Below, one piece after another: positions 6,693 through 43,536 of a DNA stretch of 51,075 nt (position 1 is its first letter; each line of letters opens with the position of its first letter). The position numbers and the translations under genes are program-made. This DNA is from a phage. The stretch lies in sequence record PZ871099.1. One strand, 5' to 3'. The notes beneath the pieces are model-generated. The model was not told the origin of the DNA. It saw only the letters and a list, made by a program, of their open reading frames with translations, and did no database searches.

Positions 6693-6718
6693 CTAATAGC
6701 ATAAAAAAACATTGCACG

Positions 6719-6737
6719 TTTAACAAAAAGTGCTATC
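6719..6737 (-). promoter_or_regulatory. conserved intergenic motif copy (plus strand reads TTTAACAAAAAGTGCTAT)
   Basis: Upstream of the capsid gene. Confidence 0.5.
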
Positions 6738-10431: not shown

Positions 10432-10470
10432 ATTCCTGTAAAATCAATCTATCAAATAAATTAATTCCAC

Positions 10471-10490
10471 TTTTAACAAAAAGTGCTATA
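10471..10490 (-). promoter_or_regulatory. conserved intergenic motif copy (plus strand reads TTTTAACAAAAAGTGCTATAAGGAG)
   Basis: Abuts the RBS of the tail chaperone gene; contains TGcTATAAG. Confidence 0.5.
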
Positions 10491-15036: not shown

Positions 15037-15767
15037 TGATTAGTGCAAAAATTAAACTTGAAATAATGCAGCACGTTAAAGAGGAATACCCTAAAGAGGC
15101 TTGCGGTGTCATAACTCAAAAGTCACGGGTACAGAAATATCACCGCATAACCAACGTGCATGATGATCCAGAAAATCATTTTGAAATGGACGCCGTAGAA
15201 TACGCTGAATCGCTCGACAAAGGCGAATTAATCGCGGTGGTGCATTCCCATTGCGGGGATGGTGCTAGCACGATACCGAGCGCGCACGACTCATGTATGT
15301 GCGATGAAATGGGTGTGTCGTGGATTATAGTGTCATGGCCAGAAGGTGATATGAGAATTGTCGAGCCGCAGGAGAGGCCGCTTATCGGTCGCCCGTGGTC
15401 GCTGGGGTCGTTCGATTGCTGGGGTCTTATCATGGCATGGCATAAACAGCACGGAGTAGTATTGAATGACTTCCGAAAGCCTTACGAGTGGTGGAAGTCA
15501 GAATATGGTGAAAATCTTTACCAGGATAATTATTTGAAAGAGGGATTTGTTGAAACTAACGAGCCTCCAAAACCTGGTGATATGGTGATTATGCAGCTAT
15601 CATCGCCAGTCTGGAATCATGCGGGGATTTATTTGGGTAACAATCAGCTATTACATCATGCGTTTGGAAAGCTATCTCGCATTGACTTGTATTCTGGATG
15701 GTATCAGGAGCACACTGTAAAAATTTGCCGACATAAGGATCTGAAATATGACATTGAAAGTAATTAA
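15037..15767 (+). CDS. tail assembly protein (lambda K-like, MPN/JAB + NlpC/P60)
   Basis: JAMM-like HSH...S..D segment (VVHSHCGDGASTIPSAHD) and NlpC/P60-like Cys (FDCWGLI); start at MISAKIK. Confidence 0.7.
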
Positions 15768-24514: not shown

Positions 24515-24550
24515 AACAAAAAGCCCCGCATATGCGGGGCATTTTTATTT
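24515..24550. terminator. bidirectional terminator between ssb and the convergent tail fiber gene
   Basis: AAAAAGCCCCGCatatGCGGGGCATTTTT. Confidence 0.8.
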
Positions 24551-27163
24551 GAGATCAACAAGTTTTGCAACCATCGACTTTAATTCGTCAACCTCACTTC
24601 TTAGCGATCGCAATTCCTCCTCCTGCTCTTTGCAAACTTGCAATATGTATGCAGTTACCGCTGAGTAGTCAACTTGTAGAAATCTTTCCTTCCCAATAAG
24701 TTCGCTACCGTCTTTTGTTGGGCCATGCAATTGCTGATAATCCTCAAAAGAACTAATAGCCTCCGGCACAACCTCCATGATCTCTTGAGCTATAACTCCA
24801 GCATAAGGCATACCATCTTTCTTTAACGTGTATGTATACCCACTAACTTTCTCAAGACCTAGCCTTGCATTTTCAATTGGTTTAATGTCAGTTTTCAAAT
24901 CTCTGTCTGACCCCTGGTTAAATGCTGTTGCGTTCACAGGTCCGTTAACTTGCAGGTGTTTAGAGTTATTTGAGTTTAACTGAGCATAGAACACCCACCC
25001 AGGGCCGTTATCAAAACCCCACTCAATAACCGACGCCCTATCAGACCCGTTACCCCATAATTTGAATGTTGCAGGGTGCGACGAGTTGCCGTCGTTAAGC
25101 ATTTTGAAATACTTGCCACTCGGACGGTCGATCTCTAAACTTGCGGCCTGTACATATGCTTTCCCCGCGAAATTCTTAGTTCCGAGTACGACGCCGTCGG
25201 TGATCAATTCAACCTTAGAAGACGTGATGTTGTTCATAAACAGGGCGCCCGTTCCGGTGTCCTTCCCTAAAAACCAAAGACGCGTTCCTGCGGAGTTGTA
25301 CCCTGTTACATGCAGTGGTTGGTTGTTTGTTGACGCCGTTCCGTCGATACGAAAACCGCCATTGGCTGTTGTAACTTTAAGGCTGGGTACGGTCATAGCG
25401 AATGCGCCACTGGCCGCAAGGCCGTTATACGCGATCAGCTTGTTGTCATACGCAAACTCACCATTGTCGCGCATTTGTAGCACTTTCTGCGACGTCCTGT
25501 TGCGAATGCCAACATCAGATCCGCCAACAAACATCTCAACAATTCTAGACCCGCTTTTAGCTCTTACATAAGCATTAAATTCAGGAGATGACCCCGCGTT
25601 ATACAACTCGTACCATTGCGACCAGTTGCCAGTAGCAGCGTTACTAAGCCATCGCATAAAACGACGCCCGCTGCTGAATGTTGTATACGTCTGTATGCAG
25701 CTTTTAGGATCGTTAGCGCCAGTGCGCTGAACAAGTAGGCAGCCTGCCTCCTGAATGGGATAATTACGCTCCGGCGTTGCGCTGGCAGACGTGCTAGTAT
25801 AATAAAATCCAGCCTTATCGCCCTGAAGAACGTTAAGATCTTCGCTTACCAACGATGCCTGTCGCTCGTGCATTACCTGAAGGTTTTTTCTCGCTCCCTG
25901 GTCGTTCGATGCTCCTGTCCCGCCGTCCCCGATCGCCACGTCACCGTTAGCACCCAGCTTCGCCAGTTCAATAGCGCCCACATTTCCAGATGAGCCGTTA
26001 ATCGCGGCATTGTTTCCAGCGAAAACCTTCACGCGAGATGTCTGGTAGTCAACGTTAAACGCAAAAAATGTGTCACCAGCCCCGCCGCACACCCCTGGAC
26101 CATACCTGAACGGCGTCATCTCGCCAGAAGGGAACTGCGTAATATCATGGACGCGCCAGAATCCTCCTTTGACAGTATCGCGCAACCGCTTGAGCATATC
26201 CCTTACGCCAGTAGGCGCAGGTAATGTTACACCAGCATACGGCACTCTATTCTGAGCCTCTGAGCTTCCAGCAGCAGCCGCTGCGCGATCAGCCTCTGTT
26301 TTAGCCTTGTTTGCACTGTTTGCAGCATTAGTTTCAGATGTCTTGGCGTTTGTCTCAGAAGTCTTCGCGGCACTAGCCGAGTTAGCAGCATTAGTTTCCG
26401 ATGTTTTAGCCGCATTCTTACTTGCATTAGCTGCATTTTCAGATGCTTTGGCATTAGTTTCCGATGTTTTAGCAGCAGATGCAGAATTAGCAGCAGCAGC
26501 CTTGTTTGCGCTTGAGTTTGTCTCTGATTCCTTTGCGTTAGCTGCCGCGGCTGAAGCCTCATTCCTGAAATTTTCAGACTCGTATCTATACCTTTGGGCG
26601 TCTGTTTTGCTGGCATTTGCTGAAGTTTCAGATGCTTTTGCATTAGTTTCCGATGTTTTAGCCGCATTCTTACTTGCATTGGCTGCATTTTCAGATGCTT
26701 TGGCATTAGTTTCCGATGTTTTAGCGTTTGTTTCAGAAGTCTTTGCAGCACTAGCGCTTTGTTTTGCTGATTCAGCGCCTTGTTTCACCTGATTTACAAG
26801 ATCTTTCAACCCATCAAGATCGAAATCTCTAAAAAATTCAAGTGCGTCAGCGATCTCCGTTTCCTTGCTTTGATAGTAACGCAGTGTTTCCGCTACGTCC
26901 TGCGCCAGCCCGTCAACCGTTAACGAGTCATGAAGCAAGATCAGGTAATTTGTCTTTTGGACTGCCGCGCCGCCAGTAGTAATTGCGCGAATGCTTGTAT
27001 CGCTAATCACCTCTGTAATCACAGCAGCTTGCAAAGGTTGAGTAAGAAAGAAAATAGTTGCACCTGGGCGAATCAAGGTTAATTGCTCACGCCATTTTGT
27101 ATCGTAACCAGTTACATAACCTTGCGCGTCCATAGACGCTTGGCCTTGTCTGTAAATCGCCAT
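24545..27163 (-). CDS. tail fiber protein with C-terminal intramolecular chaperone (S74-like) domain
   Basis: About 870 aa; Ala/Ser/Thr/Asn-rich repeats ([21 protein letters not shown]...); C-terminal chaperone-like region (...[16 protein letters not shown]...); RBS AGGAGG before ATG 27163. Confidence 0.8.
26388..26725 (-). repeat. direct repeats inside the tail fiber gene (two 86-bp copies differing at one position, plus partial copies)
   Basis: Copies begin near 26388 and 26640 (GCATTAGTTTCCGATGTTTTAGCCGCATTCTTACTTGCATT...); encode the Ala/Ser/Thr/Asn-rich region. Confidence 0.8.
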
Positions 27164-27179
27164 TTGTAAAATCCTCCTA

Positions 27180-27200
27180 AATAGCACTTTTTGCTAATGA
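27180..27200 (+). promoter_or_regulatory. conserved intergenic motif copy, degenerate (AATAGCACTTTTTGCTAATG)
   Basis: Its complement TTAGCAAAAAGTGCTATTTAGGAGG abuts the tail fiber RBS. Confidence 0.45.
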
Positions 27201-28254: not shown

Positions 28255-28731
28255 TTAGCTATTCGTGCTGTTATCACCTTTGTAGAATCTTCCGCCTGGT
28301 TCGTAGTCTGAATTTTTGACTACGCGCAACATTTCGTATTTGTCGCAACGGGTAGTAAGAGGCTTGCCGTTAGAATCAAACCGCAGATCTGGACGACAAA
28401 ACGAGGCGCGGTATCCTTTGCATCCATTATATTTGTAGTCGTTATGCACCTTTTGTGCTCCAGCGGCTGAAATCATACCACGCTTTCGCCATTGGTTAAC
28501 TACTTGCTGAGATACGCGTAGACGTCGAGCCATAGCAGGAACACCGCCGTAATACTCGATCAGAATGTCAAGGCGAGATTTCAGGCTTGCTTTTACCTCA
28601 TCTCGCAGGATAAGAAATCCGGTTCGGTGTTTTCGTGGCTTTTTGTCTTTACCTCGTCGCGTTCCGTTGTTACCGTTAATAATGCGCTTGTCGATCTCAC
28701 CCGTAGATACTGCAATTCGTGCATCTTTCAT
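28255..28731 (-). CDS. HTH DNA-binding protein (putative transcription regulator)
   Basis: HTH-like segment MARRLRVSQQVVNQWRKRGMIS; Cys-containing C-terminus. Confidence 0.45.
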   Translation of the reverse strand: MKDARIAVSTGEIDKRIINGNNGTRRGKDKKPRKHRTGFLILRDEVKASLKSRLDILIEYYGGVPAMARRLRVSQQVVNQWRKRGMISAAGAQKVHNDYKYNGCKGYRASFCRPDLRFDSNGKPLTTRCDKYEMLRVVKNSDYEPGGRFYKGDNSTNS

Positions 28732-30816: not shown

Positions 30817-31235
30817 TGGCTATAACTGATAAAGGCGATTATCTTGAGTTTTACGAAAGAGATCCAACCGACACTAGAAAGGAAGTTAATCACCAGATAG
30901 ATAGTTTTCAGTGGTTGACTTATGCTCATCCTTATTTGCTGGCGTGGCATACGGTAAACGAGAATGAGAAGTCTAAAGCAACGGCGATGATTGATCAGCA
31001 GTCCGGCTTGGTTAAGGGAGTAAGCGATTTCATCATCCTGATTGGTTTAAACGGAAAATACCCCTTTGCAGCGATTGAGATCAAACGAGTTAATAAATCA
31101 GGCAAGGGGAAAGCATCACCAGTCAGCGATGAACAAAAGGCTTTTTTGCGTCGAGTTCGCAGCTTAGGAGGATTCGCTGCGGTCGCCTACGGATTTAATC
31201 AGTTTAAGTTGGCTATTGAATACATGCTTAAATAG
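30816..31235 (+). CDS. VRR-NUC domain nuclease
   Basis: 139 aa; PD-(D/E)XK-like core GVSDFIILIGLNGKYPFAAIEIK...DEQKAFLRRVRSLGGFAAVAY. Confidence 0.65.
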   Translation: MAITDKGDYLEFYERDPTDTRKEVNHQIDSFQWLTYAHPYLLAWHTVNENEKSKATAMIDQQSGLVKGVSDFIILIGLNGKYPFAAIEIKRVNKSGKGKASPVSDEQKAFLRRVRSLGGFAAVAYGFNQFKLAIEYMLK

Positions 31236-31251: not shown

Positions 31252-31314
31252 TGGCGCGATGGATTGCGCCATAATTCAATAACACGAGATAACTTTTAAT
31301 AGCGGAGAAATGAA

Positions 31315-32044: not shown

Positions 32045-32302
32045 ATGAAAAAAGAGAGAAGCGTTTATTTAAATGAAACTGGCGAATGGTTGTTATTTCG
32101 CGCTATGGTGTGCGATGCACTTGATAAAAATCCTAACGTGAAAAAGATGATTGATTGCGATCCGTGGGAATTTTCAAGCGCATTAGATATGAGCTTTGAG
32201 GAGACAAGAAAACTCCCGCTTGAAAAATGGCACGAACAAATCAGAAATGACATGCAAGAGTTTGTCGATTCGTGGAATTTTCAGCACGGAATGATCCACT
32301 AA
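32045..32302 (+). CDS. hypothetical protein
   Basis: 85 aa; stop runs into a motif copy. Confidence 0.3.
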   Translation: MKKERSVYLNETGEWLLFRAMVCDALDKNPNVKKMIDCDPWEFSSALDMSFEETRKLPLEKWHEQIRNDMQEFVDSWNFQHGMIH

Positions 32303-32321
32303 TAGCACTTTTTGTTAAAAC
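32301..32321 (+). promoter_or_regulatory. conserved intergenic motif copy
   Basis: Followed by hairpin GCCCGGCCTAGTGTCGGGC and CATAAT. Confidence 0.6.
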
Positions 32322-32377
32322 GCCCGGCCTAGTGTCGGGCATAATTATTTCAACGAAGCAAACATGAGGAAATAAAA

Positions 32378-32557
32378 ATGGTGGTATTCGATAAACGCGC
32401 TTTTAATCTTGCTCAAGAAGTAGCAAAAGGTTCAGTGGATGGCGGTTCAAAGGAAGGATTTCAGTTTGATTGGGAGATCGCAATGTTTTTACTGAAAGTT
32501 GCATACGGTCACGCACCAATTGAACAAGCGGAGGCATATTATAAGCATGAAGGTTGA
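32378..32557 (+). CDS. hypothetical small protein
   Basis: 59 aa ORF not in the track; preceded by motif copy, -10-like box and RBS GAGGAAA. Confidence 0.3.
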   Translation: MVVFDKRAFNLAQEVAKGSVDGGSKEGFQFDWEIAMFLLKVAYGHAPIEQAEAYYKHEG

Positions 32558-32789
32558 GCAAGGAAGAGATGCGGTATGGAATCACGCTAAAGAATGCGGT
32601 ATTGCCGACGATATAAAGAAGATCGCGCAATACTTTGATATTGCAGATGTGAGCATAATTAGCGGCGACAAGATGACTTTCCTCAAGGAAAGGCCGCGAA
32701 AAATGGTAAGAGTTCCAGCAGTTCCAACAAAAATTGATTTCAAAGAGGCAATGGCTAAAATCCGAGAGCCTCGCAAATATTATAAATGA
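32547..32789 (+). CDS. hypothetical protein
   Basis: Start moved to MKVEQGRD. Confidence 0.3.
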   Translation: MKVEQGRDAVWNHAKECGIADDIKKIAQYFDIADVSIISGDKMTFLKERPRKMVRVPAVPTKIDFKEAMAKIREPRKYYK

Positions 32790-32883
32790 GGATAGTTATC
32801 ATGTGGCGCTTGTTTGTTCTACCGTTACCAGTTATCATCGCTGTTACAGTTATGTACCATATAGTGATGAGATAGGTAGCAGA

Positions 32884-33999
32884 ATGAAAAATGTAAAAAT
32901 TACAGATGAGCAATTCAAGATCGAACGGGCGGCAGGTAAGACATATAAACAGATCGCTCAAGAGTACGGAATGAATGTGAGAAGCGTCGAGCGTCGCGCG
33001 GCGCGTCTTGCAAAGCAAGGACAGTTATCGACCATCGGAGCGCCTGGTTTTGGTGTTCATGGTGAGTCAGTAATGACTGACAAAGAAGGAAATATAATCC
33101 TCAAGTGGACCAAAACCAGCAAGGATAAAGAGCAATTAGAGGCACTGATGCGCGCAGCTATGGAGGCGTTTAGCGAGGAAGTGCCGCGATTAGATCCAGT
33201 TCCATTGCAGGAGCGTAATTATAATGAAACGCTTTCATTGTATCCGATCTTTGACATGCACTTAGGCGCTATGGCCCATAAGCACGAATGCGGCGAAAAT
33301 TGGGATACTGCGACGGCAGAGCGCGTTATGAATAACTTTATCGACTATGCTTTGATGTGCGCGCCGGACAGCGAAAAGGCTGTTATCCTGATTGGTGGCG
33401 ATATGCTTCATAGCGATGGCCTGGAGGCTGTGACACCTGCAAGCGGTCACGTACTTGATCAAGATAGCCGATATGCAAAATTGGTTTACGTTGCAATCCG
33501 TGCAATGCGTCGCGCAATTAATAAAATGCTGTTAAAGCATAAACATGTTGAGGTTCAGGTCGTTGAGGGCAATCACGACCAATCAGGAATGATTTGGCTA
33601 CGCGCAGCAATGGCGTCAGCATATGAGAACGAGCCGCGCGTTTACGTTGATGTTTCTCCTCGCGTTGTTCACCACACGCAATACGGAAAAACTTTCCTTG
33701 CGTACCATCACGGGCACACAGTGCGCAAACCTGAAACTTTGCTAATGATGTGCGCGTCCGATTGGCGGGAGGACTTCGGAAACTCAAAAACGATGTATGC
33801 GCACGTAGGGCATTGGCATCACCAGACCGTAACGGAAACGTCGCTTGGCATCGTGGAAGTACATAGCACCCTGGCGGCAAAAGACGCATACGCCGCGCGC
33901 GGTGGCTGGCGATCTCGACGCCGTGCGGCGGTTATCATTTACGACAAAGAGCATGGAGAAGTCGGGCGATTTGTTCACTATCCAGAAATGATGAATTGA
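32884..33999 (+). CDS. calcineurin-like metallophosphoesterase with N-terminal HTH-like region
   Basis: Motifs DMH, GGDMLHSDG, EGNHDQ, HHGH, GHWHH in canonical order; N-terminal YKQIAQEYGMNVRSVERRAARLAKQG. Confidence 0.65.
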   Translation: MKNVKITDEQFKIERAAGKTYKQIAQEYGMNVRSVERRAARLAKQGQLSTIGAPGFGVHGESVMTDKEGNIILKWTKTSKDKEQLEALMRAAMEAFSEEVPRLDPVPLQERNYNETLSLYPIFDMHLGAMAHKHECGENWDTATAERVMNNFIDYALMCAPDSEKAVILIGGDMLHSDGLEAVTPASGHVLDQDSRYAKLVYVAIRAMRRAINKMLLKHKHVEVQVVEGNHDQSGMIWLRAAMASAYENEPRVYVDVSPRVVHHTQYGKTFLAYHHGHTVRKPETLLMMCASDWREDFGNSKTMYAHVGHWHHQTVTETSLGIVEVHSTLAAKDAYAARGGWRSRRRAAVIIYDKEHGEVGRFVHYPEMMN

Positions 34000-34143
34000 T
34001 GAATTTTTATTTAAATCAATGACAAATTAAATCAAAAACTTGCAAAGGGGCGGCGTTTGTCGCCTCTTTTTTTGTTTAATTTTTTACCATGTGCGTTTAT
34101 CATGCGATCAATATATTGACTTTAATTAATATGGAGAATAAAA

Positions 34144-34359
34144 ATGAAAGATTTTATTAACGCAGCTACCGCCGGATCTGGCGGTTCATCTATCGCAAGC
34201 GCCGCTACAGGGCAGTTAACCATTGCTATTGCCAGTTTTATTTTAATGGCTGCATTCGGTGCGTGGGGCGCTTACCTTCGCTGGCGTGATAGTAAAAAAT
34301 TCCACGAGGCGATCGAAAAAGGTGATATTCAAAAAGCTATTGAGATCAGGGGCAAGTAA
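34144..34359 (+). CDS. holin (pinholin-like, putative)
   Basis: 71 aa, hydrophobic core [21 protein letters not shown], charged C-terminus, immediately upstream of endolysin. Confidence 0.55.
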
Positions 34360-34850
34360 TGAGCATAAAGAACAGGGTAGCGGCTGCGGCCTTTGGCGTT
34401 GCGGTTGCCTTGACTTCTCCACTTCTTGAAGAGATCGAAGGGGTAAGATACAAGCCATACAAAGATATTGCGGGGGTATGGACGGTTTGCGCAGGAATCA
34501 CCGGACCCGATGTTATCCTGGGGAAAACGTACACTAAAAAAGAGTGTGATGCTTTGTTGGCTAAGCATATCCAGGTTGCCAAAAAGGAAGTTGACAAGCA
34601 AGTTAAGGTTGACATTCCTGATAGTATGCGTGCAGCAATGTACTCATTCACTTACAATGCAGGTGTGGGAGCTTTCAGAAATTCAACAATGCTTAAACTC
34701 ATCAACCAGGGGAAACTAAAAGATGCTTGCGATCAGCTTTATCGTTGGACGTATTACCACAACCCCAAAACAGGAAGGCGCGAGAAGTCTAAAGGCTTAC
34801 TTAACAGGCGCAAGGTCGAATACAAATATTGCACAATGGATCTGAAATGA
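34359..34850 (+). CDS. SAR endolysin (phage lysozyme)
   Basis: N-terminal Ala/Gly-rich signal-anchor-release-like segment, then lysozyme-like [23 protein letters not shown]. Confidence 0.8.
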
Positions 34851-35242
34851 TGAAGAAATTTTTACTTACACCAATCGCAATGGCGGTGATCTTGTCTGGA
34901 TGTTCAAGCGTTACGCCACTGACAGGATTAATCGGCAGTAAGCCGGAAATCACAGCACAGGCTGGCGCGGAGAACGTGAAGCAGACAGTTGGCATTACAG
35001 CAAAGCAGGACGCCAGCACAAAACAGAAAACCACAATAAAGGAATCTGCGGTTGACAAGGTGGACACGTCCAGCAAGAAGGATTTCACAACATCAACCAT
35101 TCAGGCCAATACCATCAAGGCAGACAAAATTCAGGTCGTGCAGGGTAATAACGGCAGATGGTACGATCCAATAATCATATGCGTGGTTGTGTTAATTGTG
35201 CTGATTTGTCTTTACTGGAGGGAAAAGAAAAAGGAGGCTTAA
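34847..35242 (+). CDS. unimolecular spanin (T1 gp11-like)
   Basis: Lipobox LSGC plus C-terminal transmembrane helix [16 protein letters not shown]; ATGA overlap with endolysin stop. Confidence 0.6.
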
Positions 35243-35260
35243 TGCCTCCTTTATTTTTAT
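35232..35260 (+). terminator. rho-independent terminator after the spanin gene
   Basis: AGGAGGCttaatGCCTCCT plus T-rich. Confidence 0.7.
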
Positions 35261-35481
35261 GCGTCGGGCCACATATGAGTTTCGTTTGTTGGCTTGTTCG
35301 ATTCGTCGTACTGCCTTACTTCAATGCTGCAAGTGTCGCCGTACAGTTCTGCAATCTTGCGCTCATTTTCAACCGCCGATTGCTCACTCCATCCAAAATC
35401 CCTGTCGTAAATTGTCGGTATTTCAGCAGAAGATCCGTTGTCATGATTATATACGCGAACTACTAAAAACTTGCTGGACAT
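35257..35481 (-). CDS. hypothetical protein
   Basis: 74 aa, own upstream motif copy at 35543. Confidence 0.3.
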   Translation of the reverse strand: MSSKFLVVRVYNHDNGSSAEIPTIYDRDFGWSEQSAVENERKIAELYGDTCSIEVRQYDESNKPTNETHMWPDA

Positions 35482-35542
35482 AATTTTACCTTTTGGTTGT
35501 TTCGTTTCGATGAAACAAATATACCCGACACTAGGCCGGGCG

Positions 35543-35563
35543 TTTTAACAAAAAATGCTATTC
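35543..35563 (-). promoter_or_regulatory. conserved intergenic motif copy
   Basis: Same hairpin as the 32301 copy, inverted; TATATT box. Confidence 0.6.
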
Positions 35564-37704: not shown

Positions 37705-37726
37705 TTTTGTCAAAAAGTGCTATTTG
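37705..37726 (-). promoter_or_regulatory. conserved intergenic motif copy (TTGACA variant)
   Basis: AAATAGCACTTTTTGACAAAAC, 22 nt, TAAAAT inside a hairpin; upstream of the ATPase gene. Confidence 0.6.
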
Positions 37727-39830: not shown

Positions 39831-40043
39831 TCATTTCTTATTTTTCAGCTTAAATTTATGACCTGGAACACCAGCGCCAATATAGCCATCGTTGTATTCC
39901 ATCAAATAAAGGTGAAGACCATTATCTGAAATTACATGAGGATCTTCTTTGAGATTTCCCATTAGTGGATATTCTTTTCCGCGCGTAAATTTCCAAATTG
40001 AGTTATAAGTTTCTACGCATTTAAGTTTTAATTGCTTTGCCAT
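39831..40043 (-). CDS. hypothetical protein
   Basis: 70 aa. Confidence 0.3.
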   Translation of the reverse strand: MAKQLKLKCVETYNSIWKFTRGKEYPLMGNLKEDPHVISDNGLHLYLMEYNDGYIGAGVPGHKFKLKNKK

Positions 40044-40744: not shown

Positions 40745-40800
40745 TTTCAAATCCTCGCATTCGTTGTCGATGCGTGTAATGTACAGGAATGCGAGGATTG

Positions 40801-40823
40801 AGTTTTAACAAAAAGTGCTATTT
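40801..40823 (-). promoter_or_regulatory. conserved intergenic motif copy
   Basis: 22 nt then TACATT, then leader ACACGCATCGACAACGAA. Confidence 0.6.
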
Positions 40824-42105: not shown

Positions 42106-42127
42106 GTTTTAACAAAAAGTGCTATTT
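42106..42127 (-). promoter_or_regulatory. conserved intergenic motif copy
   Basis: 22 nt then TACATT, then leader ACACACATCGAAACGAA. Confidence 0.6.
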
Positions 42128-42680: not shown

Positions 42681-42708
42681 TTGACACGCACCAAATAGCT
42701 TTTATAAT
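42681..42708 (+). promoter_or_regulatory. canonical sigma70 promoter (TTGACA-16-TATAAT)
   Basis: Read directly; start of the plus-strand early cluster; track ATG at 42707 lies in the -10 box so the gene start is placed at 42740. Confidence 0.65.
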
Positions 42709-43480: not shown

Positions 43481-43536
43481 GCCAGGCGCAAAGCCTGGCA
43501 TAATAGCCTCATCGAAACGAGATTGAGGAAACAAAA

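Follow-up and report, generated by a model that had tools for sequence, protein, structure and literature searches.

The coliphage genome in sequence record PZ871099.1, a T1-like Warwickvirus (Drexlerviridae, Tempevirinae) whose 51,075 nucleotides are the window analysed here, carries two nearly identical copies of a repeat-plus-hairpin element that face each other across a 3.2-kb segment with the lysis genes. We call the plus-strand copy (32301) P_A and the minus-strand copy (35562) P_B. The most probable reading, to which we assign a probability of roughly 0.7, is that P_A and P_B are convergent promoter/attenuator cassettes from a family of about 20 copies, that their identity came about by exchange between cassettes, and that they do not constitute an inversion switch.

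The pair had been reported in a preliminary description of this DNA, and direct comparison of 32301-32342(+) with the reverse complement of 35521-35562 confirmed its central figure, a match at 40 of 42 positions; the right-hand position given there, 35543, is correct to within one base, the minus-strand box running from 35562 to 35542. Extended to 32301-32362 and 35501-35562, the arms of the inverted repeat are identical at 55 of 62 positions (89%). Each copy opens with a 21-nt box, AATAGCACTTTTTGTTAAAAC in P_A (32301..32321) and AATAGCATTTTTTGTTAAAAC in P_B (35542..35562, minus strand), the two being separated by a single C>T change, and passes into an 18-nt spacer, GCCCGGCCTAGTGTCGGG, that is the same in both at 18 of 18 positions. 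The claim that the shared hairpin is distinct from those of the other copies also stood. Among the 190 pairs formed by 20 copies, the Hamming distance between spacers is 0 for P_A and P_B, 7 for the next-closest pair and 12.9 on average (standard deviation 2.3), and only about 5e-9 matches of 18/18 would be expected by chance over all 190 pairs.

Both copies belong to a family of repeats that has been described before. Phage TLS has 21-nt intergenic repeats with the consensus aaATAGCACnnnTTGnTAAAA, located about 76 nt upstream of gene starts (Phage 2024;5:173, PMC11447400), and the same paper also noted the repeat in T1, Rtp and Rogue1 and left its function open, with a stoperator, an enhancer site and an UP element as the options. 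A search with the P_A box on both strands, allowing at most five mismatches, returned 20 copies in the present genome, nearly all of them oriented with the downstream gene and, in the core set, with the box start 73-84 nt from the ATG. P_A and P_B show every feature of the TLS/T1 family (DR1-DR18 in TLS; about 18-21 copies per genome), i.e., the consensus, the intergenic position, the orientation with a gene and the distance to its start, which is 77 nt for P_A, preceding the plus-strand open reading frame (ORF) at 32378, and 81 nt for P_B, preceding the minus-strand ORF at 35481. The paired copies are real but ordinary, members of a family already known from the TLS and T1 repeats.

Exactly 18 nt past the box stands a hexamer of the form TAnnnT, with A at its second position and T at its sixth in 17 of the 20 cassettes here and in 15 of 18 in T1, and a G is conserved at -14 in the aligned cassettes. 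The hexamer reads CATAAT in P_A (32340..32345) and TATATT in P_B (35523..35518, minus strand). So fixed an element is the signature of a sigma-70 -10 hexamer, from which we infer promoter activity; with the hexamer taken as the -10, the box would span about -51 to -31. The general order of a cassette is an upstream stop codon, the 21-bp box, the 18-nt variable spacer, which is usually a GC-rich hairpin, the -10, an untranslated region (UTR) of about 30 nt, the Shine-Dalgarno (SD) sequence and the ATG. At P_A the stop codon of an upstream 85-aa gene (32300-32302) overlaps the 5' end of the box, and the 5' UTR (32346..32377) holds the ribosome-binding site (RBS) GAGGAAA ahead of the ATG at 32378; at P_B a 5' UTR and RBS likewise follow the -10, and the ATG is at 35481. 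We hypothesize that the host RNA polymerase starts a few bases past the -10 and that the box, as an activator site or a UP-like site, takes the role of a -35 at proper spacing.

Other identities for the box were rejected on inspection of its sequence. It resembles the sigma-54 promoter TGGCAC-N5-TTGC, yet has AG in place of the invariant GG and a spacing too short by 2 nt; as an extended -10 (TGnTAAAAC) it never has the T at -7; and it matches IHF, Fis and DnaA sites poorly. A literature search with the box sequence gave no relevant match, and an Rfam scan of the whole 51-kb genome matched no family.

The P_A and P_B hairpins (32322..32340 and, on the minus strand, 35523..35541) each comprise the 18-nt spacer and the first base of the -10, with a 7-bp stem and the 5-nt loop CTAGT. 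The stem is GCCCGGC/GTCGGGC, with one G.T pair, in P_A and GCCCGGC/GTCGGGT in P_B, so that six and five of the seven pairs, respectively, are G-C; the tail after the P_B hairpin is AUAUUUGUUU. On the sense strand they fold at -13.0 kcal/mol (z -3.2) and -10.9 kcal/mol (z -1.9), on the antisense strand at -10.4 and -5.3 kcal/mol. The orthologous hairpin of T1 (39998-40024, ACCCGGC-GAAA-GTCGGGT) lies directly past the T1 box and is annotated as a rho-independent terminator, and in TLS the terminator T62 lies directly past DR12, at the position orthologous to P_A (PMC11447400). All seven stem pairs are kept in all 19 distinct P_A variants from relatives, with compensatory double changes at stem positions 1 (G-C/A-T), 4 (C-G/A-T) and 5 (G-C/C-G), and there is free variation in loop sequence and length. 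Of the 19 variants, 15 have G.T at position 6, where the antisense strand would have an A.C mismatch, and at P_B stem position 7 exchanges T-A and C-G among relatives. Such patterns suggest that the structure functions on the sense strand. Across 96 distinct cassette cores, which are not independent of one another, the sense fold is the more stable by a mean of 1.7 kcal/mol (65 versus 27), and this lends weak support to a sense-strand role; G.U counts barely differ (74/778 sense versus 63/825 antisense).

Because the hairpin lies upstream of the presumed start, only read-through transcripts of the gene before it would carry it. The simplest role for it would therefore be attenuation or termination of that read-through, overlapping the next promoter, in which case it would insulate each transcription unit from the one before. 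In the cassettes at 31231, 32301, 35562, 38398 and 43460 the hairpin lies within the spacer, and in those at 37724, 44915, 46335 and 48948 it lies over the -10. The idea that each hairpin ends transcription of the unit converging from the other strand was rejected in view of the bidirectional terminator at 35230-35252 and of the A.C mismatch in the antisense stems.

Some members of the family have features of their own. Most cassettes share a motif (T)CATCGAAACGAA, conserved across genera, in the stretch of UTR that separates the -10 from the SD, for example at 35497-35508(-) and 43511-43522(+). Three box copies, at 6717-6737(-), 10470-10490(-) and 27180-27200(+), have no co-oriented downstream gene and are antisense to late or tail genes; such copies are conserved, with T1 counterparts at 15087(-) and 18851(-), and might give rise to short antisense RNAs or be binding sites only. 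At 40745-40822(-) the SD of the downstream gene is included in AATGCGAGGATT, a sequence that has its complement in a 12-nt arm, AATCCTCGCATT, of the spacer ahead of the -10. With the arm placed upstream of the -10, the SD would be sequestered solely in read-through RNA, and translation of this gene might be limited to transcripts begun at its own promoter.

The arrangement of the bracketed segment corresponds to two transcription units that face each other. P_A follows the 85-aa gene and precedes, all on the plus strand, a 59-aa ORF (phrog_2180, 32378-32557), an 80-aa ORF (phrog_2817, 32547-32789) and a gene for a helix-turn-helix (HTH) metallophosphoesterase, also labelled 'DNA repair exonuclease' (phrog_704, 32803-33999). 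An intrinsic terminator, with an 11-bp stem followed by TTTTTGTTT, occupies the gap between phosphoesterase and holin genes (34044..34069) and has a terminator annotation in phage Sip. The lysis cassette (34144..35242) follows with holin (34144-34359), endolysin (34359-34850) and unimolecular spanin (34847-35242). We propose that P_A drives the two small ORFs and the phosphoesterase gene, and probably the lysis genes too. P_B follows a leftward helicase/YdbL-like operon and has a single gene downstream, an accessory 74-aa gene (phrog_27210, 35257..35481, minus strand), which would be the only one it drives. Between the two units lies the bidirectional terminator AAAGGAGGC-TTAAT-GCCTCCTTT (35230..35252), annotated in Sip and at the equivalent site of T1. 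Since both units converge on it, the bracketing and the inverted orientation of the copies can be read as the edges of two convergent units. The preliminary description had listed the bracketed small ORFs, phosphoesterase and lysis genes correctly, and had omitted the minus-strand gene behind P_B and both terminators. The N-terminal HTH of the phosphoesterase has a weak match to Sigma70_r4_2 (aa 44-68, E 0.0019, below the Pfam cut-off), and a homologue in a Klebsiella phage is annotated as a 'sigma-70 region 4 domain-containing protein'.

Maintenance of the shared spacer was assessed from 34 IMG/VR loci, 13 GenBank relatives and T1. The 6 kb around the paired copies are 98.6% identical to Escherichia phages Sip, NorthRox and tonijn, the last of which is classified in Warwickvirus. 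About 20 GenBank records titled 'Campylobacter phage' (e.g., A139, MG065681) have approximately 77% identity over 94% of the query; their host label looks doubtful. The P_A and P_B spacers are identical (0/18) in seven sampled genomes, namely PZ871099.1, tonijn, tiwna, FritzSarasin, BEK12A, mar001J1 and SLUR29. They differ at one position in Sip, at two in two IMG/VR phages, at three in EcoS-95, MatMar and locus L004, at four in swan01, JLBYU01 and L006, at five in L009, at six in Phunderstruck, at eight in L010 and at ten in L005 and L024, and relatives at 95-98% identity have 1-6 differences in 18. TLS-type relatives carry an unrelated hairpin at P_A (CCCGCTACGGCGGG), and P_B with its small gene is lacking in T1 and many relatives, another gene family occupying the slot in some. 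The mean P_A/P_B distance is 3.6 within genomes and 3.71 across genomes (permutation p = 0.40, 10 distinct haplotype pairs). Concerted evolution of the two cassettes was rejected on these figures, and on such comparisons the identity is not maintained and appears not to be selected for.

Both positions bear variants of one hairpin family, CCCGRY-loop-RYCGGG. The P_B of swan01 is one base away from the P_A of a more distant clade, and the loops CTAGT and CTTGT are found at both positions. This pattern fits occasional exchange between cassettes, and we propose that the shared spacer reflects a common hairpin lineage together with such exchange, by homologous recombination or gene conversion. Recent duplication, one of the explanations first offered for the pair, agrees with the presence of one hairpin family at both positions; the exact identity is confined to the closest relatives, which would fit cassette exchange and not a fresh duplication. 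The preliminary description took unrelated hairpins in relatives together with a lack of inversion as its refutation, and this came true by half: hairpins at these positions in relatives are, in general, related though not identical, and no inversion was found.

It is unlikely, although conceivable, that the identity is selected, the shared hairpin being an operator or RNA signal through which P_A and P_B are regulated jointly and apart from the other cassettes. The conservation of the P_A stem CCCGRC/GYCGGG from T1 to Warwickvirus and the occurrence of the same stem family at P_B in every relative that has P_B would agree with it. However, relatives keep the pairing and not the sequence, as in the stems GCCAGGC/GTCTGGC, GCCCCGC/GTGGGGC and GCCTCGC/GTGGGGC, and a loop of either 4 or 5 nt would shift the half-site spacing for a dimeric protein. 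The unrelated P_A hairpin of TLS-type relatives, the many relatives without P_B and the lack of excess similarity within genomes also speak against it. Co-regulation as put forward in the preliminary description holds only in the trivial sense that both copies belong to the family of about 20 cassettes; the identity itself is not kept.

Breakpoints between close relatives fall on the cassettes. The allele of swan01, EcoS-95, Phunderstruck and JLBYU01 is highly divergent from 32329, in the loop of the P_A spacer, to 32527, and the SLUR29 allele is divergent over 32116-32300, a tract that ends exactly at the first box base. In BEK12A (L039 276-756 versus 31276-31296) an extra gene has been inserted directly behind the CATAAT of the 31231 cassette, ahead of the RBS of the Dam gene. 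Such breakpoints, at indel and replacement junctions, clearly point to the cassettes as recombination joints. The phage encodes an annealing protein of the Erf family (PF04404) and a PDDEXK exonuclease, which makes recombination on short homology plausible.

Several observations weigh against the reading of P_A and P_B as promoter/attenuator cassettes. The sole TTGnnA in the box is separated from the -10 by 22 nt, a distance too great for a normal -35, and the box was rejected as such an element on inspection. The literature searched for T1-like phages gave in-silico promoter predictions only, with no transcription-start or 3'-end data. The P_A hairpin is followed by a weak U-tract (AUAAUUAUUU), and a lenient local terminator scan scored both hairpins as terminator-like on the sense strand but found such matches no commoner in the region than in shuffled sequences (21 versus 21.1 expected). 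The cassettes at 37724(-), 44915(+), 46335(+) and 48948(+) enclose the -10 in the hairpin loop and have no U-tract, which fits a terminator role poorly, and hairpins without an upstream co-directional ORF are not clearly weaker (p = 0.053, with a noisy ORF heuristic).

A bolder version of the promoter reading, which we regard as a long shot, holds that a dedicated phage protein reads the boxes, activates the promoters that lack a -35 and nicks or processes the DNA there, which would turn the cassettes into hot spots of module exchange; the identical pair would then be a fresh footprint of this activity, possibly accompanied by low-frequency inversion isomers. The reader might be the sigma-70-region-4-like HTH of the phosphoesterase encoded downstream of P_A, or a Cro-like regulator (28255-28731).

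We consider it very improbable that the copies are terminal inverted repeats of a mobile or moron-like insertion carrying the segment. P_B and its small gene are indeed accessory, with variable presence and two gene families in the slot, and extra genes do insert at cassettes; but the phosphoesterase and lysis genes are core and syntenic in all sampled Drexlerviridae, including T1, which lacks P_B. There is no target-site duplication, the flanks ...GATCCACT and CCATACGC... being different, no transposase emerged from Pfam and PHROG scans of the ORFs of the segment and its surroundings, and among GenBank matches the 32301-35562 block did not turn up as one piece elsewhere in a genome or in unrelated phages. 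What looks to have been acquired is the small P_B unit alone, not the bracketed segment.

The suggestion in the preliminary description that the copies are a substrate for inversion was not supported. In this explanation the inverted repeats serve as recombination sites, and the 3.2-kb phosphoesterase/lysis module flips, which changes expression. The material for it exists, in that the repeats match over 62 nt (55/62) with about 40 nt nearly perfect, Erf and the PDDEXK exonuclease could use short homology, and a crossover in the box or spacer would, judging from the anatomy, leave every gene behind a functional cassette. By the same anatomy, however, inversion would recreate the same links between promoters and genes, and nothing would be switched. 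The predicted inversion junction, a sequence built for a crossover in the box or spacer and counted when at least 80% of it was covered, is present in 0 of 138 matching GenBank phage records, and all eight matches to the pattern of either junction in IMG/VR and metagenomes are native. Collinearity over at least 80% of the 6-kb region is found in 169 GenBank records, and in each of the 43 loci with the full set of four marker genes the Dam gene has the same orientation as the segment. Of these loci, 41 show the order Dam+ phosphoesterase+ endolysin+ helicase-; the other two are Rogue1-like and differ in helicase orientation alone. In these two, the IMG/VR contigs L031 and L035, the DUF3987 helicase block is on the same strand as the lysis genes, which is a subfamily-level rearrangement of the neighbouring helicase block that leaves the 3.2-kb segment unaffected. 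In the segment and next to it, Pfam and PHROG scans of ORFs found neither a serine nor a tyrosine recombinase, and the identity of P_A and P_B is lacking in many close relatives. The invertible segments known from phages, such as Mu G and P1 C with their Hin/Gin/Cin systems, are also a few kb long and flanked by short inverted repeats; unlike them, the present segment has no invertase gene that we could find, no alternative orientation in relatives and no coding or promoters that depend on orientation, and its repeats are ordinary promoter cassettes. An invertible segment is hardly tenable and, as far as fixed variants go, is already mostly refuted. That two copies of a common motif resemble each other by chance, in favour of which nothing speaks beyond the existence of 20 copies, can be dismissed given the 5e-9 expected full matches and the seven differences of the next pair.

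Two further features of the window were noted in passing. At 42681-42708(+) a full sigma-70 consensus promoter, TTGACA-16-TATAAT (12/12), stands divergent from a hairpin-less cassette at 42126(-), and the two probably form an early divergent control region. Within an 880-aa minus-strand ORF (24545-27187), presumably the tail fibre gene, lie periodic repeats (26283-26750) with 111-nt units at spacings of 21, 42 and 63 nt.

The proposed promoters have partial counterparts in known systems. T4 middle promoters combine a MotA box, centred near -30, with a host sigma-70 -10, so that a phage box replaces the -35. The cassettes here likewise join a host-type -10 to a phage-specific upstream box, but the sequence of the box and its position at about -51 to -31 are different. 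Compared with DR1-DR18 of TLS, they have the same consensus, orientation with genes and distance to the start, in similar copy number; the fixed -10 at +18 and the composite of box and hairpin, both of which are seen here, go unmentioned in the TLS paper, and the present case differs in that the phage is a Warwickvirus and two copies share an identical spacer. The PeSLs (promoter-early stem-loops) of T4-like phages are cassettes in which the upstream stop codon is followed by a sigma-70 promoter with a stem-loop and then by the SD and ATG (Arbiol et al. 2010, PMC2839356; Comeau et al. 2014, PMC4122927). G.T pairs occur in this stem-loop, which is placed between -35 and -10 or over the -10 and has been shown to act as a terminator, and PeSLs are found at indel junctions and drive modular shuffling, with promoter activity, terminator activity and mini-circles demonstrated experimentally (PMC2839356, PMC4122927). 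The T1-like cassettes resemble them in the composite layout, in a stem-loop between the promoter elements or over the -10, in the G.T pairs and in their location at indel and replacement junctions; the stem-loop is here, too, proposed to end read-through. In contrast to the canonical -35/N17/-10 of PeSLs, they have a 21-bp box of unrelated sequence and no -35 at about 17 bp, the hexamer at 17-18-nt spacing from the -10 being TAAAAC, and they occur in a different phage family. By analogy, the T1-like cassettes would work like PeSLs without being PeSLs.

The paired copies themselves matter little, as they are two neighbouring known repeats that face each other, with no sign of inversion. Our results provide a testable hypothesis for the question left open in the TLS paper, namely that the 21-nt repeats are PeSL-like promoter/attenuator cassettes that double as recombination joints; it is based on the fixed -10 at 18 nt, the covarying sense-strand hairpin annotated as a terminator and the breakpoints that fall exactly on cassettes. 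Such an understanding would aid the annotation of transcription units in several hundred Drexlerviridae genomes used in phage therapy and in defence-system screens.

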